Sequence record: SRR22947727_329
Reading direction: 5' to 3' (one strand)
Length of the DNA stretch: 48,654 nt
Part shown: piece by piece, positions 4,499 through 35,823 of the stretch
Numbering within the stretch: the first letter of the stretch is position 1
Layout: every line of letters begins with the position of its first letter
Program-made: the position numbers and the translations under genes
Notes under the pieces: model-generated
Database searches by the model: none
What the model was told of the DNA's origin: nothing
The model's input: only the letters and a program-made list of their open reading frames with translations

Positions 4499-6007
4499 AT
4501 GATGATTCTTACTCTGCTACTTGTTATTCCTTTCTTGGGGGCTCTGTTGCTGTCCCTATGGCCTCAAGGATCAACGCCAGCTCAACTAAGACGTCTAACC
4601 CTGGTCATACTTTCCGTTCAATGCCTTGCCAGTTTCGCGTTGCTGTTCTGGTTTGATCCGAGCAACCCTGGTTTGCAGCTTCAGGAACGCTTGCCTTGGC
4701 TTCCCAGTGTTGGGCTTGACTACTCTTTAGCGGTTGATGGAATCTCCCTTCCGCTTGTTTTGATGAATGCTGTGCTCTGTCTCGTTTCAGCAGTGGCATC
4801 GCGAAAGATTGAGGATCGACCAAGAATTTATTTCGCACTTTTATTAATCATTAGTGGGGCTGTGAATGGAGCCTTTTTAGCTCAAAATCTTTTGCTCTTT
4901 TTCTTGTTTTATGAGCTTGAGCTGATTCCACTTTGGTTGTTAATCGCTATCTGGGGTGGTGCCAATCGAGCCTATGCGTCCACGAAGTTTCTGATTGTTA
5001 CCGCAGTTTCTGGGGTCTTGATTTTGGGAGCATTCCTTGGGATTGCTCTCGTCACTGGAAGCGTTGATTTTGGAATCCGACCGATCTTGTCGGGAGAGAT
5101 GGGTCTCACCTCACAACTGTTGCTGATGGGGGCGCTGTTGATTGGGTTTGGGATCAAGATCCCTCTCTTTCCTTTTCACACCTGGCTACCGGATGCTCAC
5201 ACCGAAGCTTCGACTCCGGTGTCGGTTCTTTTGGCAGGAGTTCTCCTCAAGCTTGGGACCTACGGGTTGTTGCGATTTTGCCTTGGTCTCTTCCCTGAGG
5301 CATGGGAGGTTGCAGCCCCCTGGTTGGCTCTCTGGGCAGCGATTTCTGTCCTGTATGGCTCCTTAGCTGCAATTGCTCAATCCGATATGAAGCGCATGGT
5401 GGCTTACAGCTCTGTGGGACATATGGGATATGTCTTGCTCGCTGCTGCCGCTGCAACGCCATTGGGTTTGATCGGTGCACTATTCCAAATGGTGAGCCAC
5501 GGTTTGATTTCAGCGATTCTCTTTCTCGCTGTAGGTGTTGTTTATGAACGAACAGGTACAAGAGATCTGAATGTTCTTCGCGGACTCCTTAATCCTCAGC
5601 GTGGCTTACCCCTCACTGGAACCCTGATGATTGTGGGTGTGATGGCAAGTGCTGGAATCCCAGGCATGGCGGGTTTTATCTCTGAATTTCTTGTTTTCAG
5701 AGGAAGTCTTCAGCCTTTTCCAATCGCCACTTTGCTTTGCATGGTGGGGTCAGGTTTGACAGCTGTGTATTTCTTGTTGCTTGTGAACCGAGCCTTCTTT
5801 GGACGCTTGGCTATTGCTCCAGGCCGAGTCTCTAATCCCACCATTCTTTCCATCGTGCCGCTCCACGAGCAGCTCCCTGCGATCGCGCTGTCTTTCCTGG
5901 TGTTGCTCCTGGGTCTGGCTCCGGATCTTTTGGTTGGAATGAGTCAGGCAGCTACCACCGGTCTCAGCGAATTAGCGCTCTTACCCATCACAGGAGGACT
6001 TTCATGA
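4499..6007 (+). CDS. ndhD4: NDH-1 CO2-uptake subunit NdhD4
   Basis: NuoM-like motifs KIPLFPFHTWLPDAHTEA and KRMVAYSSVGHMG. Confidence 0.9.
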   Translation: MMILTLLLVIPFLGALLLSLWPQGSTPAQLRRLTLVILSVQCLASFALLFWFDPSNPGLQLQERLPWLPSVGLDYSLAVDGISLPLVLMNAVLCLVSAVASRKIEDRPRIYFALLLIISGAVNGAFLAQNLLLFFLFYELELIPLWLLIAIWGGANRAYASTKFLIVTAVSGVLILGAFLGIALVTGSVDFGIRPILSGEMGLTSQLLLMGALLIGFGIKIPLFPFHTWLPDAHTEASTPVSVLLAGVLLKLGTYGLLRFCLGLFPEAWEVAAPWLALWAAISVLYGSLAAIAQSDMKRMVAYSSVGHMGYVLLAAAAATPLGLIGALFQMVSHGLISAILFLAVGVVYERTGTRDLNVLRGLLNPQRGLPLTGTLMIVGVMASAGIPGMAGFISEFLVFRGSLQPFPIATLLCMVGSGLTAVYFLLLVNRAFFGRLAIAPGRVSNPTILSIVPLHEQLPAIALSFLVLLLGLAPDLLVGMSQAATTGLSELALLPITGGLS

Positions 6008-7146
6008 CTGCTTCCAAGATCACTGATGTCCCAACAATCCCCACCCTCCCTGATCGTGAAGAGCTGATCCGTCGCTTGCTTTCTGACCAACCTTTATTGG
6101 TTGATACGCCTGATCATCTTCTCCAGATTGTCAATGTTCTCGATAGCTACGGGATCGTTCTTGATGCCTACAGCCGCAACCTTGTGAATCAGGGTGAAAC
6201 TCAGCTTTTGAATCCATTTCCAGTGATGCGATTCTTTCACGAGGGTTTCAGTGTTGAACGCTTATGGCAGCACCTTCGCGGTGATCGCATCAACTTTGAG
6301 TATGCCGAGTATTGCCAGAAAGCAATGTTTTGGCATGGTACTGGCGGAATGGATGCTTATTTCGATTCCGAGCCTTTTCTGGAGACCTGTCAGAAAATCA
6401 TTGCTTTGCGAAGTCGCAGGGATCCATTGTTGGCATTGGTGCATCGGCTTTATCCAGGCTTTGCGCCTGAGGCCATTCGATCGATGGCCACCATTTATGC
6501 CCTTGGTCTGTTTTGGCGGGTGATGAGTGACCTCTTCCTTGACCTGTCTCGTAAATATCGCAATGGTGAAATTGTGTCTGTTAATGATGCTGTTCATCAC
6601 ATCAGAGATGGTTTAGTTGCTGCCGCTGGAGATCCGATGACTTACAAAGTCACGGTGGGGAATGAAGAGGTTTGGGTTCTACCACCAGAGGCAGGACTGA
6701 CATTTTTGGTTGATGTGGCGGTGCCTTACGTGGAGGCTGTCTTTTTTAGGGGCATGCCCTTCCTTGGGACTGTGTCCTACAACGCACAGGCGCGACAGAT
6801 TTCAGCTGACATCGGTGATTTCAAGTACGGAGCCTTGTACGCAGATCCCATCCCGAGCATGGGAGCGGGAATTCCTCCAAGTTTGTGCATGCAAGATATG
6901 TACCGAAATCTTCCAGAAGAGCTCAGTGATTGGTACATGTCGCATGGCAGGGGCATGCATGATGTTCATGTTCAGATCTGCATCAGTTTTCAAAAATCGA
7001 TGTTTTGTGTCACGAATGGTGCGATCTCAGGCACGATGCCTCATCCCCTTGATACGACAGATGCTGATCAGCAACAAGCCAATCATGCTTACGCTGAATC
7101 ATGGTCTGAGCGGTTGATGGGATGTCAGCGAGGAGCTCTTCTCTAA
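6004..7146 (+). CDS. cupB: CO2 hydration protein CupB (ChpX)
   Basis: DRINFEYAEYC..AMFWHG, FFRGMPFLGTVSYNAQ and SFQKSMFCVT motifs; 380 aa; ATGA overlap with ndhD4. Confidence 0.9.
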   Translation: MTASKITDVPTIPTLPDREELIRRLLSDQPLLVDTPDHLLQIVNVLDSYGIVLDAYSRNLVNQGETQLLNPFPVMRFFHEGFSVERLWQHLRGDRINFEYAEYCQKAMFWHGTGGMDAYFDSEPFLETCQKIIALRSRRDPLLALVHRLYPGFAPEAIRSMATIYALGLFWRVMSDLFLDLSRKYRNGEIVSVNDAVHHIRDGLVAAAGDPMTYKVTVGNEEVWVLPPEAGLTFLVDVAVPYVEAVFFRGMPFLGTVSYNAQARQISADIGDFKYGALYADPIPSMGAGIPPSLCMQDMYRNLPEELSDWYMSHGRGMHDVHVQICISFQKSMFCVTNGAISGTMPHPLDTTDADQQQANHAYAESWSERLMGCQRGALL

Positions 7147-7321
7147 TCAATATTATGCAAAGAGATCGTCTGCTGTGAACACCCTAGAAGCATGGGATAC
7201 TGATTTTTAAATCTCATATTTGTTGTACCCTTCGTAGCATATAATGCAGTCATTGTGAAACATTCGCATGTATGTTCGTTGTTAAGTGGTTGATGATTGC
7301 TAAATAGCTGATTGCCCTTTA

Positions 7322-7498
7322 ATGAAAATTCATGATGGTGCTGCATTTTTATCTAGATTTGATGAGTCTGCTCAGATCCTTGAAGATTGGATCAATCGCA
7401 CAACATCAGAGGATCATGCTCAATTGAATAAGCTTTATTCTGATATGAATAAAAAAGTCCAGAAAAAAGTATCTAATCCTCCCGTCTCTGATGGATGA
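7322..7498 (+). CDS. Hypothetical 58-aa protein (not in the supplied ORF track)
   Basis: Read by hand: ATG 7322 to TGA 7498, MKIHDGAAFLSRFDESAQILEDWINRTTSEDHAQLNKLYSDMNKKVQKKVSNPPVSDG; amphipathic-helix-like composition. Confidence 0.45.
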   Translation: MKIHDGAAFLSRFDESAQILEDWINRTTSEDHAQLNKLYSDMNKKVQKKVSNPPVSDG

Positions 7499-7544
7499 CA
7501 AGACTTTGTATTTTTTGTTGGGAATTGCTTTGACTTTAAGGCTT

Positions 7545-7757
7545 TCACGTGGCTTGGATTTGTAGGGCCAGCTTCTCTTTTGATTTAATAACAAAGCACT
7601 TGATATCTCTTCCTATCGAACGTGGGGTTGTACTTAGGTGATCTCCTATTTGCTGATATGACCATCCTTGCTTCCTTAGGGCGATTGCAAGCCTTAGGCG
7701 CTTGGATCTCCATCCACTGGCTGAACCAAGAAAACGAGAGAATCTTTCTTCTTTCAT
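7545..7757 (-). CDS. Small helix-turn-helix protein (70 aa)
   Basis: AIALRKQGWSYQQIGDHLSTTPRSIGRDIK fits an HTH pattern; GAGGAG about 14 nt upstream of the ATG. Confidence 0.65.
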   Translation of the reverse strand: MKEERFSRFLGSASGWRSKRLRLAIALRKQGWSYQQIGDHLSTTPRSIGRDIKCFVIKSKEKLALQIQAT

Positions 7758-7781
7758 AGTGATTTAATTTACTCCTCAAGG

Positions 7782-7811
7782 CTATCAATCAGATCCATTT
7801 CTGATTGATAG
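7782..7811. promoter_or_regulatory. Perfect 12-bp inverted repeat (operator or hairpin)
   Basis: CTATCAATCAGA-tccatt-TCTGATTGATAG, 25 bp upstream of the HTH gene start in the divergent HTH/ferredoxin gap. The function is inferred. Confidence 0.55.
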
Positions 7812-7996
7812 GATGATCTTCTCCTTTCTATCAGATTAATCTCTTTGAGCACCTTTTAAGGAGGAATAGGGCATCTAATTGTCGGACTGACTGTTACCGT
7901 TGTTGAGCGAGAAGTGCTTTATGATACATTATGGGCCAATCGTTGTTTCGAATTCATTGATGAATGCAATAAAGTAATTGTTGGACTATTCTTGTG

Positions 7997-8290
7997 ATGA
8001 CATTTTTTAATGTTCAGCTAATGACTCCTCAAGGAGAGGTGTCATTTCAATGTCCTGATGATGAATATATTCTGGATGCTGCAGAGCAAGCGGGTATTGA
8101 TATGTCGTACTCATGTCGCGCTGGCGCATGTAGTTCATGCGTAGGCCGGTTGATTCAAGGAACATTAGATCAGAGTGATCAAAGTTTTCTAGACGAGGAA
8201 CAAATTAAAGATAAATATGCACTCTTATGTGTATCATATGCCACTTCTGATTTGATCGTCAAGACTGATTGTGAAGAAGAGCTTTGGTGA
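7997..8290 (+). CDS. petF: Plant-type [2Fe-2S] ferredoxin (PetF paralogue)
   Basis: [11 protein letters not shown]...DQSDQSFLD...LLCVSY; acidic C-terminus EEELW. Confidence 0.93.
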
Positions 8291-8370
8291 TGCCTTCTTT
8301 CTGCGATCACTTCTAATTGACTCACTATTTCATTGGCTTCTAATTACGCCCGCTCTCCTGCTTCTATTCC

Positions 8371-8589
8371 GTGAAAATTTCATCTATTGTTGCAATCTAT
8401 CTTGAAGCAGTCACCTCTATGGTGATTCCTCTCTCTGCATTGAATGCGCTTTCTTTTTTGAAGAAAACAGCGGACAATGCTGAATATCGTTTAATTTCTA
8501 CATTAGAATTAAAGGTAAGGCAAGGAGTTATTCAAGTTATTCCTGTGATGAATGGTGATCATTCGCCTGATTCCTTTGTAACATATTAA
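8371..8589 (+). CDS. Hypothetical small protein or gene remnant
   Basis: 72-codon ORF (GTG; alternative ATG at 8419), co-oriented between ferredoxin and the hydrolase-fold gene. Confidence 0.35.
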   Translation: MKISSIVAIYLEAVTSMVIPLSALNALSFLKKTADNAEYRLISTLELKVRQGVIQVIPVMNGDHSPDSFVTY

Positions 8590-8660
8590 CCTTATTTCGG
8601 TGCCTCTTCACTCGAGTCATAGCCGCTATTACGGCATTATTGTAAAAGCATCATTAACGC

Positions 8661-9422
8661 ATGTCATCAATTTTTTGGATTGATTTGCAGCCTTCTGTTT
8701 TTTGCTTTAATAAGAAGCTTGCTTGCATTTTAAGTCAGTCAAGGCATGTACGCCGTTGGTCTTTTCAGCATGATCTTGATGAGATCTGTTCATTGTCAAC
8801 AATTTTTGATTTTCTTAGGGAAACTGTTGATGAATTAGATTCACCCCCTCATGTTGTAGCACATGGGCTTAGTGGCACTATTGCTTCGTTATTTGCGCGT
8901 CAATTCCCAACATTATTTGGGTCTCTCACCTTGATTTCTGTAGACCCAATCTCTACTAATCAATGGTCGAGTCATTACTTGGAAATGAGACGAAAATTAC
9001 CCTGCTCAAGATCTTCTATTTTGTCCCATATTGTGCCACTTTTGTTCGATAAACAATTCAATCCAACTAATTTAGCTCTTTCTGGTTTTTTTGAAAAATG
9101 TCTTGATTCCGATTTCATACCTGGTTCAATTGCTTCTCATTCTCTTCTTCCTAACCTTTCTTCGATTGACATACCCTTGTCGGTCATTAACGGTTCTGAT
9201 GATTTTGTAGTGGATCAGAACTCTTCTCTGCGTTGGCAGCCTCATTTGAAGAATGGTGATCGCTTCTATTCATTGCCAGGGGGACATCATTTTTCTCACT
9301 TTACCCAGCCCAGGCTGTATGGAAACTTGATCAACTCTTTTCTTGAGATGATTCCAACTTCTTTTTCACCTATTTTCCCTAGTCAATTTCATAGTTCACT
9401 TTCGAGAAAGATTTCAACATGA
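8661..9422 (+). CDS. IsiC-like alpha/beta-hydrolase-fold protein
   Basis: HVVAHGLSG elbow, LTLISV, NGSDDFVV and GGHHFSHF; resembles the cyanobacterial iron-stress protein IsiC as I recall it; isiB is nearby. Confidence 0.7.
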   Translation: MSSIFWIDLQPSVFCFNKKLACILSQSRHVRRWSFQHDLDEICSLSTIFDFLRETVDELDSPPHVVAHGLSGTIASLFARQFPTLFGSLTLISVDPISTNQWSSHYLEMRRKLPCSRSSILSHIVPLLFDKQFNPTNLALSGFFEKCLDSDFIPGSIASHSLLPNLSSIDIPLSVINGSDDFVVDQNSSLRWQPHLKNGDRFYSLPGGHHFSHFTQPRLYGNLINSFLEMIPTSFSPIFPSQFHSSLSRKIST

Positions 9423-10378
9423 CAGAGTTTATTGATACCGATGTTTTGATTATTGGTGGTGGTCCGGCTGGTTGTTCTTGTGCTCTTTACACATCAAGGT
9501 CATCCTTGAAGACCTATATCTTAGACAAAAATAAATCTGTAGGGGCTTTAGCTATTACCCATAAAATTGCTAATTATCCGGGTGTCTCTAATGAGATTTC
9601 TGGGTCTGATCTGCTTGATATGATGAGAGATCAAGCTACTTCTTATGGAACAAACTATATACGAGCTCAGGTTTTTAGTCTGGATTTGTCTGGAGAGCAT
9701 AAACTTGTTTATACACCAGAAGGTGTCTTTCGTTCTCGTACGATCGTTTTAGCGACTGGCGCGATGGGTCGGACATCGACTCTTCCAGGTGAAAAAGAGT
9801 TTTTAGGTCGCGGTGTTAGTTACTGTGCAACCTGTGATGCCGCTTTTTATCGCAATGAGGATGTCTTGGTTTATGGTTCAAATCAAGAAGCCGTTGATGA
9901 GGCACTTGTTCTTACTAAATTCGCCAAAACTGTTCATTGGGTTACCAGTGGTAAACCAAGTCGATCTACGAATCGGGTTGAATTACTCACTGATCTTCCC
10001 AATGTCAAGCAATGGGAACGCACTAAGTTATTATCTATTCACGGGAATGATGCTGGATTGAATTTTGCAAAAGTTCAATCCACGAAAGACAAGGTAACTT
10101 TTACTTTGGATGTTGCCGGAGCTTTTTTATACTCTACAGGTACGCTTCCGATCACCGATTTCCTTCATGGACTTATTCCACTTCGTGCCGATGGTGGAGT
10201 TGATGTGGATGACAATATGATGACTTCTGTTCCAGGTGTTTGGGCTATAGGTGACATTCGTAATACCCCTTTTAAGCAGGCTGTTGTTGCGTGCTCAGAT
10301 GGTTGTATCGCTGCAATGTCAATTGATAAATATCTAAACTCTAGAACTGAGTTTCGTGTTGATTGGGTCCACAAATGA
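9419..10378 (+). CDS. Thioredoxin-reductase-family flavoprotein, probably ferredoxin-dependent (FFTR/DTR type)
   Basis: IIGGGPAG FAD motif, GRGVSYCATCD, TSVPGVWAIGD; the NADPH motif position reads YGSNQEA with no HRR; C-terminal tail RVDWVHK; ATGA overlap with the upstream gene. Confidence 0.85.
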   Translation: MTEFIDTDVLIIGGGPAGCSCALYTSRSSLKTYILDKNKSVGALAITHKIANYPGVSNEISGSDLLDMMRDQATSYGTNYIRAQVFSLDLSGEHKLVYTPEGVFRSRTIVLATGAMGRTSTLPGEKEFLGRGVSYCATCDAAFYRNEDVLVYGSNQEAVDEALVLTKFAKTVHWVTSGKPSRSTNRVELLTDLPNVKQWERTKLLSIHGNDAGLNFAKVQSTKDKVTFTLDVAGAFLYSTGTLPITDFLHGLIPLRADGGVDVDDNMMTSVPGVWAIGDIRNTPFKQAVVACSDGCIAAMSIDKYLNSRTEFRVDWVHK

Positions 10379-10383
10379 CAGAC

Positions 10384-10416
10384 AAAAGGCGCTCATTGTG
10401 GGCGCCTTATGTTTTG
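10384..10416. terminator. Probable bidirectional intrinsic terminator
   Basis: AAGGCGCTCA-ttg-TGGGCGCCTT hairpin with an A-run before and a T-rich tail after, between the convergent reductase and isiB stops. Confidence 0.7.
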
Positions 10417-10420
10417 GCTT

Positions 10421-10930
10421 TTATGCTTCTAAATTTATTTGTTTGACCCAGTCACTTAGGCGTTGATCTGTTAAATCAGACTCATTGTCTTCGTCAATTG
10501 CTAAGCCGCAAAATTTTCCGTCAATCACACTTTTTGATTCTGCAAATGTATAGCTGTCTGTTGGTACTTTTCCAATAAGTTTTGCACCGGCTTGTAGGAA
10601 GGCAGTATATAACTCTTCCATTGCATCACAGAAGTAATCTGAATAGGAAGATGAATCTCCAAGGCCTAAAATTGCTACTGATTTTCCGCTGAAATCCATG
10701 CTTGGTATTTCTTCGGCATAAGTATCCCAGGCAGTACCAGAGCGACCTTCATCTGCCCCTGTATTCCATGTAGGAACACAGCAAATGAGTGCCTCTGCTT
10801 CAGCTAGCTCTGCTGCAGATCCGATGCTGTCTACATCTTTGCTTTCTGTACCTGGTAATAGCTCTTTGAGTTTGTCGGCAACATCCTCAGTCTTTCCTGT
10901 GGAGGTTGCAAAAAAAATGGTGTAAGCCAT
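10421..10930 (-). CDS. isiB: Long-chain flavodoxin IsiB
   Basis: IFFATSTGKTE FMN loop, VPTWNTG, GLGDSSSYSDYFCDAM, GLAIDEDNESDLT. Confidence 0.95.
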   Translation of the reverse strand: MAYTIFFATSTGKTEDVADKLKELLPGTESKDVDSIGSAAELAEAEALICCVPTWNTGADEGRSGTAWDTYAEEIPSMDFSGKSVAILGLGDSSSYSDYFCDAMEELYTAFLQAGAKLIGKVPTDSYTFAESKSVIDGKFCGLAIDEDNESDLTDQRLSDWVKQINLEA

Positions 10931-10940
10931 GACGTTATCG

Positions 10941-10960
10941 TTGACGCATCTATTCTCAAT
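10941..10960 (-). promoter_or_regulatory. Possible Fur-box-like site upstream of isiB (half-site only)
   Basis: Minus strand ATTGAGAATAGATGCGTCAA: a good ATTGAGAAT half-site 22-30 nt before the ATG, with a poor second half. Confidence 0.3.
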
Positions 10961-11025
10961 GTTTTTGTCTTCCCGATTTGTGCGATTGAATGTTGTTTGC
11001 TGTTTATTCTTATGATTTTACAGGT

Positions 11026-11214
11026 TCATTGCATTCTTTGTTTGTGATCATACGATACTTCTATTGGATTAATTTGTATGGACTCATTGTATTCTCCGAG
11101 CGTTTGCTCAAGCCCGTTCTGTCCAACCTTTTTAAGCCAGCGCTCCCTATTGATTCTGCTTGACTCAATGGTCTCAATGAATGATTCAAGAAGACTGATG
11201 TGTTTTTCTTTCAT
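11026..11214 (-). CDS. Hypothetical 62-aa protein
   Basis: ATG preceded by purine-rich AAGGAAAGGAA; 26 bp downstream of the 11241 ORF; co-oriented with isiB. Confidence 0.55.
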   Translation of the reverse strand: MKEKHISLLESFIETIESSRINRERWLKKVGQNGLEQTLGEYNESIQINPIEVSYDHKQRMQ

Positions 11215-11240
11215 GGATTTGTTTCCTTTCCTTGGTTTTT

Positions 11241-11537
11241 TTAATTTTCGTTGCTTTGACAGCCGCCTCTGTTTTGTAATTCTTTTTCCGCTGAATTAAT
11301 TGTGTTGTAGGCAGAAATTGCTGTTGCTCTGAGTTCCGCAAGAAATACAAGGCATGATTTACAGTTTTGCTCATCTGCAATATCCATCAGCTCAGCAAGA
11401 GATGTGGTTGCATGGCTTAACTCTGATTTTGCCTTTGTAAGGTTGATGGCTACTAAATTGATTGCTTGACTTGCATCGTTTTTTCGATGACGATTCTCGA
11501 GTGCTTGTCGAAATGCTTCTAAGTTTTCCATTTCCAA
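11241..11537 (-). CDS. Hypothetical helical protein with a central CxxC
   Basis: 98-codon ORF (TTG; ATG at 11531); two heptad-like helices flank NCKSCL. Confidence 0.6.
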   Translation of the reverse strand: MEMENLEAFRQALENRHRKNDASQAINLVAINLTKAKSELSHATTSLAELMDIADEQNCKSCLVFLAELRATAISAYNTINSAEKELQNRGGCQSNEN

Positions 11538-11911
11538 TTTTTTACAACCTTATGGTTTGACAACATCAATTCTGTTTGCTTGTGTCTTATATTCTGTATC
11601 ATAATTGTCGTTGCTGCGTATCTATTTTATGTTTGCAGGCTGTTGGATTATTCTGCTTTTTTGCAGTGAGGTGTAATTTTCCTAGCCATCTCTCTTGCGC
11701 CGTGTGTTTGTCTTTTTTCTGGCCACTGTGCTTGAACTCTGATTGATTGTTTGTTTTTACCCTGTCTTCCTCTTGTTTTCTGTGTTATGCAGTTTTTCTG
11801 TTTGATGAGCCGTTTGGTTTTCTCTTTGTGTGTCGGTTGAACTTTAAGATTTATTTGTTAGGTCATCGGACCGCTCTCTACTAGGTTTGTAGGTGATGAA
11901 GGGATTGTCTT

Positions 11912-12163
11912 ATGGACCAATGGCATGAGCGCAAAAGGCCAGTTTGCCTCGAGCGCCGATTTGAGTTTGAAAGCTACAGTGACACACGTGATTTCCTTGA
12001 TCGTCTCGGCGATTTCAGCGAAGCGAAACAGAGATTTCCTGATATTAGTTTTGGCCGAACCTATGTGAACATCACTCTGCGCCCAGAGGCTGAGGGCGAT
12101 GATAGTCAGCTCAGCGATGATGATCGTAGCTTCGCTTTAGAGATTGATGCCCTCTTCTGTTGA
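11912..12163 (+). CDS. Pterin-4a-carbinolamine dehydratase-like protein (alpha-carboxysome Rubisco assembly factor, acRAF type)
   Basis: [20 protein letters not shown]...[15 protein letters not shown]; overlaps the cbbX start. Confidence 0.85.
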
Positions 12164-13070
12164 TCTGGCGGCTGCTTATGCCGAGTCAGGCGTTGCGGAG
12201 GTTCTTGACCAGCTAGACCAGGAGCTCATTGGTTTGCTGCCAGTGAAGACGCGCATTCGTGAAATCGCGGCTTTGTTTCTGGTGGATCGTGCCCGTCAAC
12301 AGTTGGATTTGCAAACCACTGCTCCCGGACTACATATGTCGTTTACTGGAAGACCAGGGACGGGGAAGACCACGGTCGCTAAACGAATTTCGCAAATTCT
12401 TTATCGGCTTGGCTATTTGCGAAAGGGACATGTTGTCACCGTGACTCGAGATGATCTCGTGGGTCAATATGTTGGTCATACTGCTCCTAAAACGCGTGAG
12501 ATGATCAAGCGTTCTCTGGGTGGTGTTCTATTCATTGATGAAGCCTATTATCTCTATAAGTCTGATAACGAACGTGACTATGGGGCCGAAGCGATTGAAA
12601 TACTCTTGCAAGATATGGAGAATCAGCGATCAGACTTTGTGGTGATTTTTGCTGGTTATAAGGATCGTATGGCCAGTTTTTACCAATCCAATTCGGGGCT
12701 TTCCTCGCGAGTGGCTCATCACATCGACTTTCCTGATTACAGCGAAGATGAGCTCATGGGGATTGCCCTTTTGTTGCTCACTCAGCAGGATTACCACTTC
12801 AGCGAATCAGCGCATGATGCCTTCAGCCTTTACATCAACAGGAGATGTCAGTTGCCACACTTTGCGAATGCTCGTTCCATTCGGAATGCCCTTGATCGTT
12901 TGAGGCTTCGTCAAGCGAATCGGTTATTTTCTCGCCTCGATCAATCTCTTAGTCGAGATGATCTGACCACCATCGAAGCAGAAGATGTTTTTGCAAGTCG
13001 CGTGTTCCAGGGTGAGATTGAGGGTCGCGATCCTTCTCAGCCCTTGACAAAGATTTCGGGTTCTTCTTGA
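12147..13070 (+). CDS. cbbX: CbbX AAA+ protein (Rubisco activase family)
   Basis: [14 protein letters not shown] Walker [12 protein letters not shown] pore loop, LFIDEAYYL Walker [10 protein letters not shown]. Confidence 0.95.
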
Positions 13071-16341: not shown

Positions 16342-18203
16342 TGGCTGGTTCCGATTTTCAGCGGGTTAAGCGGCTTGGTCGCTACTTAGGTCGAGATCGA
16401 CGACGACTCACGCTCACGTTGGTGCTGCTCATTCCAGTGGCTGTTGCCGGCGCGATTCAGCCGCTGTTGGTTGGGCAGGCGATTGCCGTTTTGCGCCGTG
16501 TTGGAGGGGCCGCCAACGAGTCGGTGATTCCTCTTTTTCAGGGTCTCGACAGCACGGTTGCGATCCGACTGATCATCCTGATGTTGTTGGGATCGGTTCT
16601 GGTTCGCTTGGCTCTTCAGGGAGTTCAGTCGTTCAATATTCAAGCCGTCGGCCAGCGGCTCACCGCTCGCATCCGCAAGGATTTGTTTGCCCATGCGATG
16701 AGTTTGTCTCTGCGGTTTCATGACCGCATGCCCGTGGGCAAGCTGCTGACTCGCCTCACCAGCGATGTGGATGCATTAGCCGAGGTGTTTGGAAGCGGTG
16801 CCGTTGGTGTGCTCGGAGATCTCGTCAGTTTGCTGGTGATTGCGGTTTCGATGCTGCTGATCGAGTGGCGTTTGGGTTTGTTGTTGCTCGTGACCCAACT
16901 GCCTGTCACCTTCGTGATTGTTTGGCTTCAGAGGCGCTATCGAAAGGCCAACTATCGTGTGAGAGAGGAGCTTTCTCAACTCAACGCTGATTTTCAGGAG
17001 AACCTCCAAGGTCTTGAGGTTGTGCAGATGTTTCGCCGTGAAGCCGTCAACGGAGATCGGTTTCAGAGAACCGGTTTGGCGTATCGAAGTGCAGTGAATG
17101 GCACGATTTTTTTTGACAGCAGCATCTCTGCCTTTTTGGAGTGGGTGTCGTTAGGTGCCGTTGCCCTCGTTCTTGCGCTTGGCGGATGGATGGTCACATC
17201 AGGAGCGATGGGCCTTGGCACGCTCACAACCTTCATCCTCTACTCACAGCGCCTGTTTGACCCCCTTCGCCAAATGGCTGAGCGGTTTACCCAGATCCAA
17301 GGAGGACTCACTGCTGTGGAACGGATTGGCGAGCTCCTGGAGGAGCCTCTCGAGATTGTTGACCATGGTGCTGCCATCGGTTCAACCTTTGGTTCGAGAG
17401 GTGGATCCACGGTTGATCCCAAGGTTGGTCCCACGCTCCTCCAGAACGCTTCATCTTCACAAGCTCGTGGTGAAGTGATTTTTGAAGACGTGGACTTTGC
17501 TTACCGAAAAGATGAGCCGATCCTGCGCGATCTCAGTTTTCGGATTGCACCTGGTGAGCATGTTGCTCTTGTTGGACCCACCGGATCTGGCAAGACCACG
17601 GTGATTCGGCTCCTCTGCCGGTTGTATGAGCCCCAGCGTGGACGAATCCTTCTGGATGGCCAGGACATCCGCAGCTTGCCTTTGCAAGAGCTGCGTCGTC
17701 AGCTGGGTGTGGTGCTTCAAGACACTTTTCTCTTTAGTGGAACGGTGGCCGACAATTTGCGGTTGGATCGGCCCCTCGATGACCAGAAACTGCAGGAGGT
17801 TTGCCGTGATCTCGGACTTGATCCCCTGCTCGGTCGATTGCCTGAAGGTTTGGATACCGCATTGAGAGAGCGGGGAGGGAATCTCAGCTCTGGGGAAAGA
17901 CAGCTGCTAGCTGTGGCCAGGGTCGCGATTCGCAACCCAACGGTCCTGGTGATGGATGAAGCGACTGCGTTTATGGACCCTTCTACAGAAGCCACCCTGC
18001 AGCGGGACCTAGATCGTCTCCTCAACCGGCGCACGGCAGTGGTGATTGCCCACCGGCTTGCCACCGTTGAGGCGGCTGACAGGATTTTGGTGCTTCGTCG
18101 AGGGAGCCTGATCGAGCAGGGCACCCATCTTCAGTTGCGTGCCAGTGGTGGTTTGTACGCCGAACTTGCCGATCTTCAGGAGCGAGGACTCGCCAGGCTT
18201 TGA
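16341..18203 (+). CDS. ABC exporter, fused permease/ATPase (MdlB-like)
   Basis: N-terminal TMD plus GPTGSGKT, LSSGERQ, VMDEATA and IAHRL. Confidence 0.9.
   Translation: MAGSDFQRVKRLGRYLGRDRRRLTLTLVLLIPVAVAGAIQPLLVGQAIAVLRRVGGAANESVIPLFQGLDSTVAIRLIILMLLGSVLVRLALQGVQSFNIQAVGQRLTARIRKDLFAHAMSLSLRFHDRMPVGKLLTRLTSDVDALAEVFGSGAVGVLGDLVSLLVIAVSMLLIEWRLGLLLLVTQLPVTFVIVWLQRRYRKANYRVREELSQLNADFQENLQGLEVVQMFRREAVNGDRFQRTGLAYRSAVNGTIFFDSSISAFLEWVSLGAVALVLALGGWMVTSGAMGLGTLTTFILYSQRLFDPLRQMAERFTQIQGGLTAVERIGELLEEPLEIVDHGAAIGSTFGSRGGSTVDPKVGPTLLQNASSSQARGEVIFEDVDFAYRKDEPILRDLSFRIAPGEHVALVGPTGSGKTTVIRLLCRLYEPQRGRILLDGQDIRSLPLQELRRQLGVVLQDTFLFSGTVADNLRLDRPLDDQKLQEVCRDLGLDPLLGRLPEGLDTALRERGGNLSSGERQLLAVARVAIRNPTVLVMDEATAFMDPSTEATLQRDLDRLLNRRTAVVIAHRLATVEAADRILVLRRGSLIEQGTHLQLRASGGLYAELADLQERGLARL
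17376..17435 (+). repeat. Degenerate 12-bp tandem repeat (5 units) in the ABC TMD-NBD linker
   Basis: ATCGGTTCAACC/TTTGGTTCGAGA/GGTGGATCCACG/GTTGATCCCAAG/GTTGGTCCCACG = IGST-FGSR-GGST-VDPK-VGPT. Confidence 0.55.
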
Positions 18204-18922
18204 TCGATGAGCCAGTGATGGATCGTTTGTGCCAGTAGGTCGGGATGGCTCTGCATGGCCAGATGTCCGCACTGTTTGAGTTCTTTTAGGCAGTGCTTGT
18301 CGCTGTATTCGGCAAGATGTTTCACATAGCCGGGTTCCATCACGCGGTCCTGCTCACCGCTAATCCATAGGTTCTTAGCCTCCAAATCTGCAACCAGGTT
18401 TGGAATCTGTTTGACAGCTCCTCGCGTGGTGCTGTTCACCAGCAGACCCAGTGCCGCGCGTTTCTCCGCTTGAAATGGCCCCAACTGGCCGATGGGCCCT
18501 GGAAGTGAGGTGGGACGGAGTTTCAGAATCAATTGCCCTCCAAACCTGAGGCGTCGAAACGGTCTGGGTTGGTAGATCCCACCTCCGGCCGCCAACATCA
18601 CAAGACCCGAGAGAGGCTGATCCCACTGTCGACGTAGATAGGTTTCTGCATGCAGGGCAATGCTTCCTCCCAGTGAGTGACCCATCAACACCACGTGGTG
18701 GCCCTTGGCTTGAGCTCGAATCTGCTCCGCAAGCCATTGGCCGTAGGACGCCAAGGTTGGTCGAAGCTGAGGAGGGCGAGACTCCAGTCCAAATCCTGGT
18801 AAATCAGGACACCACAAAGGGATAGAGGTGCCTAAGCGTGTCCAGCTTTCTTCAAACGGTGCCCAAACCTTGCGGCTGAGCATCCAACCGTGTACGGCGA
18901 TCAGCAGCAGATCAGAGGTCAT
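18176..18922 (-). CDS. Alpha/beta hydrolase
   Basis: VHGW, PDLPGFG, GHSLGG nucleophile, GEQDRV, CGHL; likely start MTSDLLL at 18922. Confidence 0.88.
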   Translation of the reverse strand: MTSDLLLIAVHGWMLSRKVWAPFEESWTRLGTSIPLWCPDLPGFGLESRPPQLRPTLASYGQWLAEQIRAQAKGHHVVLMGHSLGGSIALHAETYLRRQWDQPLSGLVMLAAGGGIYQPRPFRRLRFGGQLILKLRPTSLPGPIGQLGPFQAEKRAALGLLVNSTTRGAVKQIPNLVADLEAKNLWISGEQDRVMEPGYVKHLAEYSDKHCLKELKQCGHLAMQSHPDLLAQTIHHWLIDQSLASPRS

Positions 18923-18958
18923 CGGTGCGTCAGGATTAAGGCATCGTCGCAGGACAGG

Positions 18959-19462
18959 GTGACTAGTACTCCCTCTCTCACCCAAGAGATTTTGGTGCAT
19001 TCCTACGGGAAAGAGGCTCGGATCTGTGAAACGGCCAATACCAAGCTAAGCCTGGTATTCAGCCAGTCTCGTCCAATGGATTTAGTTGAGCTGGAACAGC
19101 TCCTAGAGGCGGTGGGGTGGAGTCGCAGGCCAGTTCGGCGCGTTCGCAAGGCCCTTGATAACAGCTTGCTCAGGGTGGGGTTATGGCGCCATGACCCACG
19201 CATTCCACGCCTTGTGGGTTTCGCACGCTGCACTGGAGATGGTGTTCTTGAAGCCACGGTTTGGGATGTGGCCGTTCACCCCTTGTATCAAGGTGCTGGG
19301 CTTGGTCGTCAGTTGATGGATTACATCCTCGATGCCCTAACAGAGATGGGAACGGAGCGCGCCACGCTGTTCGCCGATCCAGGGGTGCTGCCCTTTTATG
19401 ACCGTCTTGGTTGGGACCTAGAGCCCAATGGTCACCGTTGTGGTTTTTGGTATTCCAATTGA
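18959..19462 (+). CDS. GNAT acetyltransferase (Ycf52-like)
   Basis: LVGFARCTGDG, WDVAVHPLYQGAGLG acetyl-CoA motif, FYDRLGW; likely GTG start at 18959. Confidence 0.88.
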   Translation: MTSTPSLTQEILVHSYGKEARICETANTKLSLVFSQSRPMDLVELEQLLEAVGWSRRPVRRVRKALDNSLLRVGLWRHDPRIPRLVGFARCTGDGVLEATVWDVAVHPLYQGAGLGRQLMDYILDALTEMGTERATLFADPGVLPFYDRLGWDLEPNGHRCGFWYSN

Positions 19463-22062: not shown

Positions 22063-23460
22063 GTGGTGCTGACGGGCAGTGAGCTCTGGAACAAGGTGCA
22101 GCACGCTCTTCAGAGCAACCTCAGCAAGCCCACCTTTGAAACGTGGATTCGTCCTGCGCGCTGTAACTCCTTCCAAGATCGGAGGCTGACCCTGCAGGCT
22201 CCCAATCGTTTTGCTAGCAATTGGCTGCGTAAGAACTACGTCAGCACCATTGCTGAAGTGGCGCAGGAGATCACGGGGCATCCGATCGAGGTGATCGTGC
22301 TTGCTCAAGACGATGAAGATGGGGCGCCTGGGTCGACTCTCGAGGCTCGGGTGTCGCCTTCCAGCCAGCAGGCTTTGGCACCAACGACGGCTGGAGTCGC
22401 TGCCCCGCCGAGCACCGCTCCCCGTCGGCTCCCCGGCTTGAACATGCGCTATGTGTTCAATCGTTTTGTCGTTGGCCCCAACAGTCGGATGGCGCATGCG
22501 GCTGCTTTGGCAGTAGCCGAGGCCCCAGGCCGTGAATTCAATCCGCTATTCATCTGTGGAGGTGTGGGCCTAGGCAAGACCCATCTAATGCAGGCGATTG
22601 GTCATTACCGCCTAGAGATTGATCCTGAAGCGCGCGTGTTTTATGTGTCGACGGAAACGTTTACGAATGATCTGATTACTGCGATTCGTAAGGACGGTAT
22701 GCAGGCTTTCCGAGACCGTTATCGGGCCGCGGATCTCATCTTGGTTGATGACATTCAATTCATCGAAGGCAAGGAATACACCCAAGAAGAGTTCTTCCAT
22801 ACGTTCAATGCTTTGCACGATGCAGGGCGACAGATTGTGATTGCGAGTGATCGGCCTCCTAGCCAAATTCCTCGGCTGCAGGAGCGATTAATTTCTCGCT
22901 TCTCGATGGGATTAATCGCGGATATCCAGGCCCCTGATCTGGAAACACGAATGGCGATTCTTCAGAAAAAAGCTGAGCAAGAACGCGTTGCTCTTCCTCG
23001 CGACTTAATTCAATACATCTCTGGCCGCTTTACCTCCAATATTCGTGAACTTGAGGGAGCGCTCACTCGGGCTGTTGCGTTTTCTTCGATCACAGGAATT
23101 CCGATGACCGTTGAATCGGTCGCGCCGATGCTTGATCCCAGTGGCCAAGGTGTTGATGTCACACCGCAGCAAGTGATTGAAAAGGTGTCTGAGGTGTTCG
23201 ACGTCACGGCAGAAGATATGCGCAGCAGCAGCCGACGGCGAGCGGTGAGTCAGGCTCGTCAGGTGGGGATGTTCTTGATGCGGCAAGGCACAGATTTGAG
23301 CTTGCCGAGAATCGGCGACACCTTCGGAGGTAAGGATCACACCACCGTGATTTATGCCATTGAACAAGTGGAAAAGAAGCTTGCTACTGATCCGCACCTA
23401 GCGAGTCAGGTGCAAAGGGTGAAGGATCTTTTGCAAATCGACTCTCGCCGTCGTCGCTAG
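22063..23460 (+). CDS. dnaA: Chromosomal replication initiator DnaA
   Basis: [50 protein letters not shown]. Confidence 0.98.
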
Positions 23461-23466
23461 GAATCA

Positions 23467-24246
23467 TCAGGCATCACTGCCTTTCCATCCTGCCAAGTGG
23501 GATGCCGCTGATGAGCGAGCCAGCCTGCGCGCTGCAGGTAGGGCTGGATCCAAATGTTTTGAGCTAAAAGGAGGCATGGGCCTCGTTCGCAACCAGAGGC
23601 CCCAACGAAACTCGTGATAAGGAATCAAGGGCTGTGGCTTGATCACTCCCTCCTGCTTCAGTTTCCAAACAAGGCTGCGGTAAGGATCATCCTGAAGGCC
23701 AAGCAATGTGGCGGGCAGGTCTTTCGCTGGCCACGGGCCATTGCCTCTGCCGTCTTGAAGATAGAGCCAACCCTTGTTGTGTAGAGCCTGGAGAGCCTCC
23801 TCCCTGGTGCTAGTGGTTAGGTCGTCGATCACGTAGCCGTAAGTCGTAATCGTTGGAACCATTTCGAGCAAGGCTCGGAGGCGGTGATGTCGATCCACCA
23901 TCCAAAGGTGTCCAAGCTGATTGCGTACCAATGGCACTGGCTTGCGATTGAGATACCGGCGACGTTCTTCGGGACTTTCCTCACGGAAATCACGTTGCCG
24001 GTTCCATACCTCAGCCATCCCCACACACATCTGTGTGGGCTGAAGGTCAGCAACGGCCACCTCAAAAAGCTTGAGACCTTTGTTGTGATCAGGTATTGGG
24101 GCGTAATCAGGAAGATGCAGAGGGCAGGCCTCAACGCTGCATCCATCCACTATGCCGAGGTTGAGTTGTGAATTGACTCGCTGATCACTCCTGAGCTGAC
24201 TTGGCTCTGATTGTTGGTGTACTCGTGCATCGAAGGCAGCGGGCAA
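23467..24246 (-). CDS. ParB/Srx-like nuclease-domain protein (ParBc_2-like); true start probably downstream of 24246
   Basis: DLQPTQMCVG, MVDRHHR, DDPYRSLVW, EFRWG motifs. Confidence 0.75.
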   Translation of the reverse strand: MPAAFDARVHQQSEPSQLRSDQRVNSQLNLGIVDGCSVEACPLHLPDYAPIPDHNKGLKLFEVAVADLQPTQMCVGMAEVWNRQRDFREESPEERRRYLNRKPVPLVRNQLGHLWMVDRHHRLRALLEMVPTITTYGYVIDDLTTSTREEALQALHNKGWLYLQDGRGNGPWPAKDLPATLLGLQDDPYRSLVWKLKQEGVIKPQPLIPYHEFRWGLWLRTRPMPPFSSKHLDPALPAARRLARSSAASHLAGWKGSDA

Positions 24247-24269
24247 AATGTGAGAAAACAGTGAACCCC

Positions 24270-25631
24270 ATGGAACAAATCTTTGATCTTGTGGTTCTCG
24301 GTGCTGGGTCTGGAGGCTTAGCTGCTGCCAAACGTGCTGCCCGTTATGGAGCCAAGGTGGCGATTGTTGAGGGAGATCGCGTTGGCGGTACCTGTGTCAT
24401 TCGTGGTTGCGTGCCGAAAAAGCTGCTGGTGTACGGCTCTCTTCTCTCCGAACAACTCGAGGGTGCGTCGAGTTATGGCGTGAGTGTTGCGGGGGCAACG
24501 TTTGATACGTCTGTGCTTTTGCGCAATGTGCGTCAAGAGGTGGATCGCCTCAATGCACTTCATATCGATTTTTTGGCCAAAGCTGGAGTGGAGTTGATCA
24601 CAGGTTGGGGCCGTTTTCTTGACCCGCATCGCATTGGTGTGTCTAAGGCGCGCGAGGGTGAGATCGATCAGGTGCTGCAGGCCAAGCGGGTGATGATTGC
24701 AGTGGGTGGGCGACCTTTTCGGCCGAACATTCCAGGGGCTGAGCTTGCTTGGATCAGCGATGACATGTTTTTGCAGCAGCGTTTCCCAGACCGGGTTGTA
24801 GTGGTGGGAGCTGGGTTCATTGCATGTGAATTTGCTGGCATCCTGCGAGGCCTTGGTGTTGCGGTGACCCAATTGGTGCGTGGCGAACAGCTTTTGCGAG
24901 GGTTTGACAGCGAACTGTCAGGAGTTGTGCAGGAGGGTATGCAGTCCAAGGGCATCGACCTGCGCTTTGGACAAGGCCTTGCTGCGATTGAGGGTCAATC
25001 AAATGATTTGACTGTCGTGACCAAGAGCGGTGATCGTCTGCCGTGTGGTGGGGTCCTGTTGGCGACGGGGCGTCAACCATTCCTTTCAGGCCTGGGTCTC
25101 GATGCCGCTGGCGTGGTGGTCGAGGGGCATCGAATCCCAGTTGATGCCGATCAAGTCACCAACCTTCCCCATGTTTTTGCGGTTGGAGATGTGACGGATC
25201 GCATTTGCTTGACCCCTGTCGCGGTGGATGAGGGGCGTGCTTTTGCAGACAGTGTGTTTGGAAGCACTCCTCGGCAGGTCAATCACAACTTGGTTGCAAG
25301 TGCTGTGTTCAGTCAGCCGGAGCTAGCCACAGTGGGCTTATCAGAGGAGGCAGCGATTGCCCAGCTCGGTGCGGATCAGGTTGTGGTTCATCGCGCGCGT
25401 TTTCGCTCCATGGCTCAGGCGTTGCCTCAACACGGTCCCCGTTGCTTGTTGAAGTTGGTCTTGGAATTGAACAGCGGGAAGGTGCTCGGATGTCACATGG
25501 TTGGTGAGCATGCGGCAGAAATTATCCAGATGGCTGCTATCGCCGTGGGAATGGGGGCGACCAAGGCCGATTTCGATCGCACGATGGCCTTGCACCCGAC
25601 GGTTTCAGAGGAGTTTGTGACGATGGCTTGA
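24270..25631 (+). CDS. gor: Glutathione-disulfide reductase
   Basis: GAGSGG, GGTCVIRGCVPKK, GAGFIACE, ALHPTVSEE; start at ATG 24270. Confidence 0.95.
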   Translation: MEQIFDLVVLGAGSGGLAAAKRAARYGAKVAIVEGDRVGGTCVIRGCVPKKLLVYGSLLSEQLEGASSYGVSVAGATFDTSVLLRNVRQEVDRLNALHIDFLAKAGVELITGWGRFLDPHRIGVSKAREGEIDQVLQAKRVMIAVGGRPFRPNIPGAELAWISDDMFLQQRFPDRVVVVGAGFIACEFAGILRGLGVAVTQLVRGEQLLRGFDSELSGVVQEGMQSKGIDLRFGQGLAAIEGQSNDLTVVTKSGDRLPCGGVLLATGRQPFLSGLGLDAAGVVVEGHRIPVDADQVTNLPHVFAVGDVTDRICLTPVAVDEGRAFADSVFGSTPRQVNHNLVASAVFSQPELATVGLSEEAAIAQLGADQVVVHRARFRSMAQALPQHGPRCLLKLVLELNSGKVLGCHMVGEHAAEIIQMAAIAVGMGATKADFDRTMALHPTVSEEFVTMA

Positions 25632-27214: not shown

Positions 27215-27820
27215 TCAGGTCGTGCGTTGCCAGACGTAAATTAAAAGGTAAAGAATGATCCAAATAACATCAACAAAATGCCAGAAAAGACTTACTGATG
27301 TGACGCCCATATCCCCCTTCTCATAATTATTTGGCCTGAAAGATCGAATCAGCATCAATCCCATTAACAGAATGCCTGTGATGACATGCAGGCCGTGAAA
27401 TCCTGTTAAAAGAAAAAATGTACCACCAAAGACTCCACTGCTAAGGCCGAATTGAAGTTCGGACCATTCCACATATTGTCCATAAACAAAGTATGCTCCC
27501 ATGGCCATCGTGAGGAGCCATAAAGATCGAAAGCCCCAAAGGTTTTTCTGATGCAAATAGCGCTCTGCAAAATAGGCTACAAAGCTTGAACTGACCAGCA
27601 CGATTGTGTTGATCAAAGGCATGCGTGTTTCTAGCCCCTCAACACCTTCTGGAAGCCACTCTGGAGCGGTGGTTTTTAAAAGCGCAAAGCCAATAAAAAA
27701 GGCTAGAAAAATAATACTTTCTGAACACAGGAAAATGATAAAACCTGTGAGGTTGTGCCCATCGTGCTTGATGTGACCGGGTTGGTGATTGAGCGGTAAG
27801 TCGGGATTGGTTGTGGTCAT
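27215..27820 (-). CDS. ctaEII: Alternative respiratory terminal oxidase (ARTO) subunit III
   Basis: FLCSE, NTIVLVSSS, TGFHGLHV, FWHFVDVIW. Confidence 0.9.
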   Translation of the reverse strand: MTTTNPDLPLNHQPGHIKHDGHNLTGFIIFLCSESIIFLAFFIGFALLKTTAPEWLPEGVEGLETRMPLINTIVLVSSSFVAYFAERYLHQKNLWGFRSLWLLTMAMGAYFVYGQYVEWSELQFGLSSGVFGGTFFLLTGFHGLHVITGILLMGLMLIRSFRPNNYEKGDMGVTSVSLFWHFVDVIWIILYLLIYVWQRTT

Positions 27821-27824
27821 TGCT

Positions 27825-29513: not shown

Positions 29514-29518
29514 TAGTG

Positions 29519-35737: not shown

Positions 35738-35823
35738 TGGGGGCGGGGGGACTTGAACCCCCACAGACATTTCTGCCCAAACGATTTTAAGTCGCGTGCG
35801 TCTACCGATTCCGCCACGCCCCC
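35738..35823 (-). tRNA. trnL: tRNA-Leu (anticodon TAA), no intron
   Basis: Reverse complement GGGGGCGTGGCGGAATCGGTAGACGCA...GACTTAAAATC...GGTTCAAGTCC...CGCCCCCA: 7-bp acceptor stem, long variable arm, TTCAAGT T-loop. Confidence 0.95.

Follow-up and report, generated by a model that had tools for sequence, protein, structure and literature searches.

The window analysed here, a stretch of 48,654 nucleotides from sequence record SRR22947727_329, is part of a marine Synechococcus chromosome, and the 4765-nt block (positions 7147–11911) that lies in it between the end of chpX and the beginning of acRAF is a clade-I marine Synechococcus copy, in fuller form, of a known accessory iron-stress gene cluster, Syn-eCAG_011. 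The block encodes a thioredoxin reductase which, judged by its sequence, is of the NADPH-independent, ferredoxin-dependent flavin type (FFTR, formerly DTR), and with it a ferredoxin, a flavodoxin, an alpha/beta hydrolase, a 70-residue helix-turn-helix protein (HTH70) and three small conserved proteins. Taken as a whole the evidence favours an iron-stress branch of thioredoxin reduction running through the FFTR, a reading that we consider fairly probable. The ferredoxin, orf72, hydrolase and reductase genes follow one another in that order on the plus strand, and the orf98, orf62 and flavodoxin genes do so on the minus strand; the two sets converge, and the gene calls and a hairpin at 10386–10408 agree with an earlier sequence-only reading of this DNA, which had described two convergent sets meeting at a single hairpin. 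The gene content listed in that reading stands for both sets, but the HTH70 gene (7545–7757, minus strand) had been overlooked. Statements attributed below to PMC8154056, PMC8634477, PMC9025218, PMC10119275 and PMC11970481 refer to the available parts of those sources.

The reductase (9419–10378, plus strand; trxB of the 'NTR system' in Cyanorak) has as its best match in the PDB the enzyme of Gloeobacter violaceus (5J60/6XTF), aligned end to end over residues 4–318 with an E value of 3.2e-127, whereas the second-best match, to an ordinary NADPH enzyme, reaches 6.7e-53. Pyr_redox_2 is matched with 111 bits over residues 8–295, as for a two-Rossmann thioredoxin-reductase-like fold, and the 287 bits scored against TIGR01292 lie under the cut-off of 343. 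In an alignment of 35 reductase sequences that takes in relatives from Chloroflexota and Nitrospirota, three groups of residues are invariant in all 35, namely G13, G15 and G18 of the FAD site GGGPAG (residues 13–18; GxGxxG), C136 and C139 of the redox-active CxxC (CATC, 136–139), and W316, which aligns with the C-terminal tail Trp of 5J60. Where the Mycobacterium tuberculosis enzyme has 'gggdsa' at its NADPH site, the window reductase has 'gsnqea' and the Gloeobacter enzyme 'glnpea'. The HRR motif is part of the NADPH-binding signature, and the M. tuberculosis segment 'hrrdefras' faces 'tsgkpsrst' in the window reductase. Absence of the NADPH-binding motif GxGxxA/G belongs to the definition of FFTR (PMC9025218), and enzymes of this family are reduced by plant-type ferredoxin and not by NADPH, the C-terminal tail Trp stacking on the FAD and being required for ferredoxin binding (Buey et al., PMC8154056). 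All testable sequence features of the family are present, and the earlier claim of an NADPH-independent enzyme is supported by the 5J60/6XTF match, the retained CxxC and tail Trp, and the replaced NADPH motifs. In the reductase tree the clade of picocyanobacterial FFTRs, 26 rows with a support of 100/100, includes the enzyme, whose placement next to the NAT70 group is weak (80/69). A divergent second reductase copy was considered, since identity among relatives drops from 86% to 71%, and was ruled out, as the table of Dore et al. gives trxB a score of 0 or 1 in each genome and the tree places the clade within the picocyanobacterial FFTRs.

The cluster itself is on record. Dore et al. (2023, ISME J, PMC10119275) describe trxB, isiB1 and a hydrolase gene as Syn-eCAG_011, common in low-iron, high-nutrient low-chlorophyll (HNLC) waters, and the entries for it in their table, in genomic island Syn_GI065, are isiB1 and isiB2, trxB ('NTR system') and a 'putative hydrolase/acyltransferase'. 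The labels of trxB and the hydrolase are identical in about 55 of the 138 genome columns (counted by eye), including those of AG-679-C18 and NAT70, and they agree, also with that of isiB1, in every genome of the table that has trxB; for AG-679-C18, a close relative of the window, trxB, isiB1 and the hydrolase all stand under one label in supplement file 7. The window holds the same three core genes, adjacent within 8661–10930. Syn-eCAG_011, however, lists three to four genes, whereas the window unit adds the ferredoxin, the HTH gene, three conserved small open reading frames (ORFs) and a shared terminator; moreover, the reductase of Syn-eCAG_011 is labelled 'NTR system', and the available part of PMC10119275 calls it that or 'thioredoxin reductase' and not FFTR, whereas the window reductase is identified as an FFTR. 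The core trio being published, and a ferredoxin linked to isiB having been noted by Dufresne et al. (2008), the earlier suggestion of an undescribed module cannot be maintained; absent from the texts searched are the fuller gene content, the recognition of the cluster's reductase as an FFTR, and flavodoxin tested as FFTR donor. In metatranscriptomes from 2025 (PMC11970481), 'trxR' and 'bioH' go up along with isiA, isiB and idiA in cluster syn8, which comprises Synechococcus clades I, IV, CRD1 and CRD2; at the places of iron addition the expression of this cluster was not anomalous. The proposed link to iron is therefore sustained by the frequency of the cluster in low-iron waters and by the rise of same-named genes with isiA and idiA in the field. 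A further entry, CK_00009095 (supplement file 7 of PMC10119275, row 127), carries the trio's cluster label in many strains including NAT70, not in AG-679-C18; its pattern would fit isiA, and its identity was not found in the available Dore supplements.

The ferredoxin gene (7994–8290, plus strand), a petF paralogue, encodes a plant-type [2Fe-2S] ferredoxin (TIGR02008, 130.9 bits against a cut-off of 81.15; PF00111) that matches Synechocystis ferredoxin 1OFF with an E value of 1.6e-35 and the ferredoxin chain of the Gloeobacter FFTR complex, 6XTF_C, with 5e-34; the four Cys ligands are visible in the alignment in the pattern CxxxxCxxC...C. The mechanically called ORF opens at GTG 7994, and because relatives (97 aa) begin at the corresponding ATG three bases on, the true start is probably ATG 7997. 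The flavodoxin gene (10421–10930, minus strand) encodes a long-chain IsiB (NF006738, 251.9 bits against a cut-off of 172; TIGR01752, 164.4 against 146.75) that is 90–97% identical within the clade and 83% identical to that of the more distant NAT70. The hydrolase (8661–9422, plus strand) scores 26.8 bits against Abhydrolase_1, just over the cut-off of 25.8, and is named 'putative hydrolase/acyltransferase' by Cyanorak and 'pimeloyl-ACP methyl ester carboxylesterase', the BioH name, by JGI. It does not match any curated BioH model, and its only NCBIfam matches at E ≤ 0.01 are to three weak non-BioH models. The triad Ser71, Asp181 and His210 is invariant in eight of eight sequences, and so, down to 31% identity, are cysteines C15, C43 and C115, the last within a PCSR motif. 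The end of the hydrolase gene is overlapped by the start of the reductase gene by 4 nt (ATGA), from which translational coupling of the two is predicted, and given that coupling the three invariant cysteines are suggestive. Of the 105 hydrolase relatives found, every named one is from marine Synechococcus. The mean pLDDT (model confidence) of the predicted hydrolase structure is 50, and the protein may be called IsiC-like, after sll0249 of Synechocystis, by its alpha/beta fold and its position beside isiB in an iron-stress unit.

Conservation of the block was followed by a genome scan with the reductase, which gave 184 pattern matches, 97 relatives and 80 loci kept, of which L001–L012 were examined in detail and L013–L018 for four genes only. 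Five loci, all from Synechococcus metagenome-assembled or single-amplified genomes, carry a reductase 86–96% identical to that of the window; one of them, AG-679-C18 (L002; reductase identity 91%, syntenic with the window), belongs to subcluster 5.1, clade I, sub-clade Ic in the strain table of Dore et al. In all five the eight conserved block genes stand in identical order between chpX and acRAF, and this synteny, like the co-occurrence of labels described above, bears out the expectation that the genes travel together. The GC content of the block is 0.376–0.406 in all six genomes, against 0.48–0.55 in the flanks. Pairwise synonymous divergence (dS) of block genes is about that of flank genes in each genome pair, 0.25–0.8 for near relatives and more than 0.9 for AG-679-C18 and L004, which argues that the common ancestor already had the block and passed it on vertically. 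The ratio of nonsynonymous to synonymous divergence (dN/dS) is 0.02–0.06 for the HTH gene, ferredoxin, reductase and flavodoxin (HTH70 spanning that whole range, ferredoxin and flavodoxin each 0.03–0.05), 0.07–0.14 for the hydrolase, and 0.14–0.32 for orf72 (0.14–0.31), orf62 (0.15–0.24) and orf98 (0.14–0.32); values of 0.02–0.32 indicate purifying selection, and all eight conserved genes are therefore taken to be real. AG-679-C18 (8058–8952 of its locus) and L004 (7855–8946) are longer by 0.9–1.1 kb in the interval from the ferredoxin gene to orf72, just where NAT70 has an isiA-like gene. The stretch in AG-679-C18 contains no ORF of at least 45 codons, and the two inserts are unlike, having one 53-nt stretch in common at 74% identity. 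An isiA remnant in these stretches was considered and rejected, as tblastn gave no match at E ≤ 1 to the isiA-like protein.

Among the seven more distant cyanobacterial loci, four have isi-type neighbours beside the reductase (isiA-like, ferredoxin, flavodoxin, idiA-like or ferritin-like genes) and none has carboxysome genes beside it. The fullest comparison is offered by L006, which GenBank lists as Cyanobium sp. NAT70 and the Dore table as Synechococcus 5.1 'Unk1'. There the HTH, ferredoxin, orf72-like, hydrolase and reductase genes converge on flavodoxin and an orf62-like gene at a different genomic site, with an isiA-like (photosystem II-family) gene between the ferredoxin gene and orf72, and the neighbours are a porin, an idiA/futA-like binding protein, a ferritin-like protein and a phycobilisome linker. 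The GC content of the NAT70 locus is 0.425 throughout, and the module is therefore not anomalous there. In L008 the order is isiA-like, hydrolase, isiA-like, reductase. In L010 and L012 an isiA-psaL fusion, a second isiA-like gene and a phycobilisome linker gene lie directly upstream of the FFTR gene, and the ferredoxin and flavodoxin genes lie 3–4 kb beyond the reductase. The fusion is at 6060–7538 of L010 and likewise in the 6268–7263 region of L012, both loci being from marine non-picocyanobacterial metagenome-assembled genomes, and downstream of the FFTR gene both have Suc_Fer-like, YwiC-like, ferredoxin and flavodoxin genes.

Iron limits picocyanobacteria over large ocean areas, and the cost in clusters is one 4Fe-4S for ferredoxin:thioredoxin reductase (FTR) and one 2Fe-2S for ferredoxin. 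According to the literature, FFTR accepts electrons from plant-type ferredoxin and passes them to thioredoxin. Under iron shortage the cell would switch on an iron-cheap branch from photosystem I, in which electrons would pass to the ferredoxin paralogue of the block or to flavodoxin, from either to the FAD of the FFTR, and from the FFTR to a housekeeping thioredoxin encoded elsewhere. Such a branch would relieve or replace the 4Fe-4S enzyme FTR and would keep thioredoxin targets (Calvin-cycle control, peroxiredoxins) reduced, with the hydrolase and the small proteins as accessory parts and HTH70 as a candidate local regulator. The step from flavodoxin to the FFTR is proposed tentatively; it has precedent, because flavodoxin is reported to feed FTR, to which it donates less well than ferredoxin (PMC5322553). 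The complete scheme, in which flavodoxin also reduces the FFTR, HTH70 acts as a sigma-4/LuxR-like mini-regulator and the hydrolase and three small proteins are parts of one iron-stress thioredoxin branch, is likewise possible rather than probable. A predicted complex of the FFTR dimer with flavodoxin scored 0.00 with the supplied alignments unused, and counts neither for nor against binding.

Several observations weigh against an iron-stress branch of this kind. No experiment in which flavodoxin reduces any FFTR was found in the literature searched, so far as the available parts of those sources go, and PMC8154056 presents the tail of FFTR as adapted to plant-type ferredoxin, so that ferredoxin may be the sole donor. 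An iron-sulfur ferredoxin at the head of an 'iron-sparing' operon is not obviously economical. Neither the block nor the 33 further large ORFs of the window include a thioredoxin-fold gene, and the FTR gene is not in the window, from which the rest of the genome is not visible. In three of the seven distant loci (L007, L009 and L011) the reductase has no isi-type neighbour within 13.4–13.6 kb. A scan of the block for Fur boxes matching at least 13 of 19 positions of the E. coli consensus gave none, whereas shuffled sequences average 1.9; this does not exclude Fur, because the Fur motif of marine Synechococcus is undefined. Finally, the 'trxR' and 'bioH' of the field study are equated with the present reductase and hydrolase from their names alone. 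Of the iron-switchable relay from photosystem I to disulfide targets that had been read from the sequence, the enzyme class, the linkage and the iron connection in the literature are thus supported, while the claims that it is self-contained, undescribed and meaningful in its position are not; in particular, the relay is not self-contained, because the block has no thioredoxin gene.

Under iron stress the reductase could instead be induced chiefly for protection from reactive oxygen species, in that it supplies peroxiredoxins and other defences, and not to replace FTR. PMC11970481 places trxR with ahpC as an oxidative-stress response, and Synechococcus PCC 7002 has a trxB–peroxiredoxin pair under PerR (PMC4628125), in which the enzyme is not shown to be an FFTR. 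However, none of the 12 loci has a peroxiredoxin gene within or next to the block, and the neighbours are electron carriers and isi genes; we regard this explanation as unlikely without being negligible, and it is compatible with the sparing of FTR, because both run through thioredoxin.

About equally doubtful is a second alternative, namely that the genes are co-regulated but form no relay, flavodoxin serving FNR or other ferredoxin clients and the FFTR being fed by the block's ferredoxin alone. The dedicated ferredoxin gene does head the FFTR operon, with isiB in the opposite operon, and FFTR relies for ferredoxin binding on a tail that presumably evolved to suit plant-type ferredoxin (PMC8154056). 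In Prochlorococcus, moreover, trxB and isiB1 are in different islands, Pro_GI040 and Pro_GI050 (PMC10119275). Across Synechococcus, on the other hand, trxB and isiB1 have a nearly equal presence pattern and the same cluster label in that study, and the reductase–flavodoxin pair recurs in another gene order in L010 and L012.

Still less probable is the proposal that a self-contained relay lies beside the carboxysome and Rubisco-activase genes because it controls them, which takes up the earlier suggestion that the position beside carbon-fixation genes is meaningful. All five close genomes retain the location between chpX and acRAF-cbbX, and in Gloeobacter the FFTR–thioredoxin pair reduces CP12 (PMC8154056). 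Nevertheless, the missing thioredoxin gene, the NAT70 module away from chpX and cbbX, the absence of either gene from the vicinity in L008, L010 and L012, and a sharp fall in GC that marks an insertion and not a co-evolved neighbourhood all speak against it. The distant loci, with carboxysome genes in none of seven and isi-type genes in four, go against a meaningful position; the position beside carboxysome genes is specific to this clade.

The proposed iron-stress FFTR branch has parallels in three further known systems. The isiAB(E)CD operon of Synechocystis, induced by iron shortage (PMC8634477), also places flavodoxin beside an alpha/beta-fold hydrolase, isiC, and small proteins, and the isiA-like gene inside the NAT70 module extends the likeness. 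That operon, however, has isiA, which the window block does not, and it has neither thioredoxin reductase nor ferredoxin; the small ORFs of the window are neither DUF2555 (IsiD) nor Cys-rich like IsiE. The enzyme of the Gloeobacter violaceus Fdx1–FFTR(DTR)–TrxA system (5J60, 6XTF; PMC8154056) resembles the window reductase in its CxxC and tail Trp and in having lost the NADPH site, and its partner is a plant-type ferredoxin such as the block encodes. Unlike the Gloeobacter system, the window FFTR gene sits with flavodoxin and isi-type genes, and whereas Gloeobacter and Prochlorococcus have no thioredoxin reductase besides FFTR, Synechococcus has it as an accessory to FTR; FTR is present in all Synechococcus studied by Mallen-Ponce et al. 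(2022, PMC9025218), FFTR in some of them only. The available part of that paper examines gene neighbourhoods for DDOR, mentions none for FFTR and never mentions isiA. FTR (FtrC/FtrV), finally, does the same job as FFTR, from photosystem I carriers to thioredoxin, but with an unrelated fold and a 4Fe-4S cofactor.

With the cluster already catalogued and the enzymology known from Gloeobacter, joining the two literatures raises the question of whether flavodoxin drives the FFTR. If it does, thioredoxin would be reduced from photosystem I by a chain without any iron, and this flavin-only route would join the known iron-sparing swaps and would explain the frequency of the cluster in HNLC waters. 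The ocean-omics labels 'trxB (NTR)' and 'bioH' would then misname two parts of one iron-sparing device. The names 'trxR, oxidative stress' and 'bioH, biotin synthesis' underlie physiological conclusions in a field study (PMC11970481), and the gene order, with the hydrolase coupled to the FFTR and opposite isiB, argues for assigning both to a single unit of electron transfer under iron stress.

The hairpin between the convergent sets (10386–10408) has 10 pairs, six of them G-C, and is preceded by an A-run and followed by a T-run; it is kept in seven of seven aligned loci, with a two-sided change in L005, and is predicted to act as a bidirectional intrinsic terminator common to both operons. Between the divergent HTH70 and ferredoxin genes, the region 7758–7993 contains non-coding blocks conserved in a seven-locus alignment that may constitute a divergent promoter, with a -10-like element TTATGATAC near 7915–7925, although a sigma-70 consensus scan found no plus-strand match in 7758–7993. 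At the other end of the block, the T-rich spacer ahead of acRAF-cbbX (11538–11911; AT skew of the plus strand -0.37 to -0.43) has a conserved block at about 11603–11640 in a six-locus alignment, the putative minus-strand promoter of orf98-orf62-isiB. The conserved blocks upstream of the ferredoxin gene and of orf98 have a TATGATAC-like element in common. Within the same spacer a 30-nt stretch (11738–11767), which begins TCTGATTGAT, resembles 7800–7829 in the HTH/ferredoxin promoter region at 73%. The sigma-70 scan gave six sites in all against 11.9 expected, none usefully placed, and Rfam gave no match at E ≤ 1 over 6900–12300.

HTH70 is a candidate local regulator of both putative promoters. 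Its match to Pfam HTH_23 (E 1.5e-4, 21.9 bits) is under the cut-off of 24.6; its model has three helices at a pLDDT of 76, and its best PDB fold matches, none at E ≤ 0.001, are sigma-70 region 4 and LuxR/NarL-type domains. The gene is present in all five clade loci and in NAT70, at 54–99% identity, and the family comprises 16 protein clusters among 5.8 billion, all unnamed or 'hypothetical'. The three small conserved ORFs have no match in Pfam or NCBIfam. Of these, orf72 (8371–8589, plus strand) is present in five of five clade loci and in NAT70 at 35–82% identity, and orf62, just upstream of isiB (11026–11214, minus strand), is present in the same five and weakly in NAT70 (32%). The helix-rich, clade-restricted orf98 (11241–11537, minus strand) is 54–91% identical in the five clade loci and was not found in NAT70. 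It had been described as a CxxC protein, and the motif is indeed kept in five of six genomes, but in L004 the second Cys is Trp; because the CxxC is not invariant and orf98 is missing from NAT70, a core redox role for this protein is unlikely. The best ESM Atlas scores, 0.79 for orf98 and 0.81 for orf72, are uninformative, as shuffled proteins reach the same range. The 400 nt that separate chpX from HTH70 contain two further short ORFs, namely orf58 (7322–7498), a doubtful gene that recurs in two of five relatives with a dN/dS of about 0.4, and the ORF 7143–7346, which has no family match; both are probably non-coding.

The windowed profile confirms the AT-rich block of about 4.7 kb that had been described: the block has a GC content of 0.396, against 0.520 in the 5 kb to its left and 0.547 in the 5 kb to its right, and 500-nt windows within 7001–12000 have 0.378–0.436, against 0.47–0.61 on either side. 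The low GC of the block is stable within the clade. Third-position GC (GC3) of seven of the eight block genes is 0.23–0.41 over all six genomes, with orf62 up to 0.55, against 0.37–0.66 for flank genes. Recent foreign cargo of no settled function, brought by phage or recent lateral transfer, would fit the GC of 0.40 against 0.52–0.55 and the window GC3 of 0.26–0.41 against 0.46–0.65, but with block dS tracking that of the flanks, purifying selection on all conserved block genes, phage matches covering at most 5% of the block, reductase matches in phage all under 60% identity, neither tRNA nor flanking direct repeat at the borders (the sole tRNA of the window is at 35738) and a reductase that branches inside the picocyanobacterial FFTR clade, 'recent' is rejected and this origin is highly improbable. 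A phage origin was rejected on the coverage per record and on the lack of any close phage relative of the reductase: 46 records of a phage collection match the block, the matching part being the ferredoxin gene among the 10 matches listed, and no cyanophage is among the named reductase matches, which number 86 with the unnamed. An old arrival from a low-GC picocyanobacterium is possible and fits. The foreign-looking GC3, however, has not drifted towards host values despite saturated synonymous divergence.

The first 7 kb of the window consist of carboxysome and CO2-uptake genes, including CsoSCA (1–1446), a bacterial microcompartment shell protein (2031–2570), ndhF, ndhD and chpX. The last of these, a chpX/cupB-type CO2 hydration protein (6004–7146, plus strand; PF10216, 495.8 bits) at the end of ndhF-ndhD-chpX, forms the left border of the block, and the right border is formed by an acRAF-like Pterin_4a protein (11912–12163, plus strand; PF01329, 35 bits) and cbbX (12144–13070, plus strand; TIGR02880, 502.6 bits). 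Farther to the right are a second alpha/beta hydrolase, unrelated to that of the block (18176–19000), and, about 10 kb from the block, dnaA (22063–23460), which adjoins a ParB-like nuclease gene (23467–24246). A glutathione-reductase-like flavoprotein gene lies at 24201–25631 and a cytochrome oxidase operon at 27215–30466.

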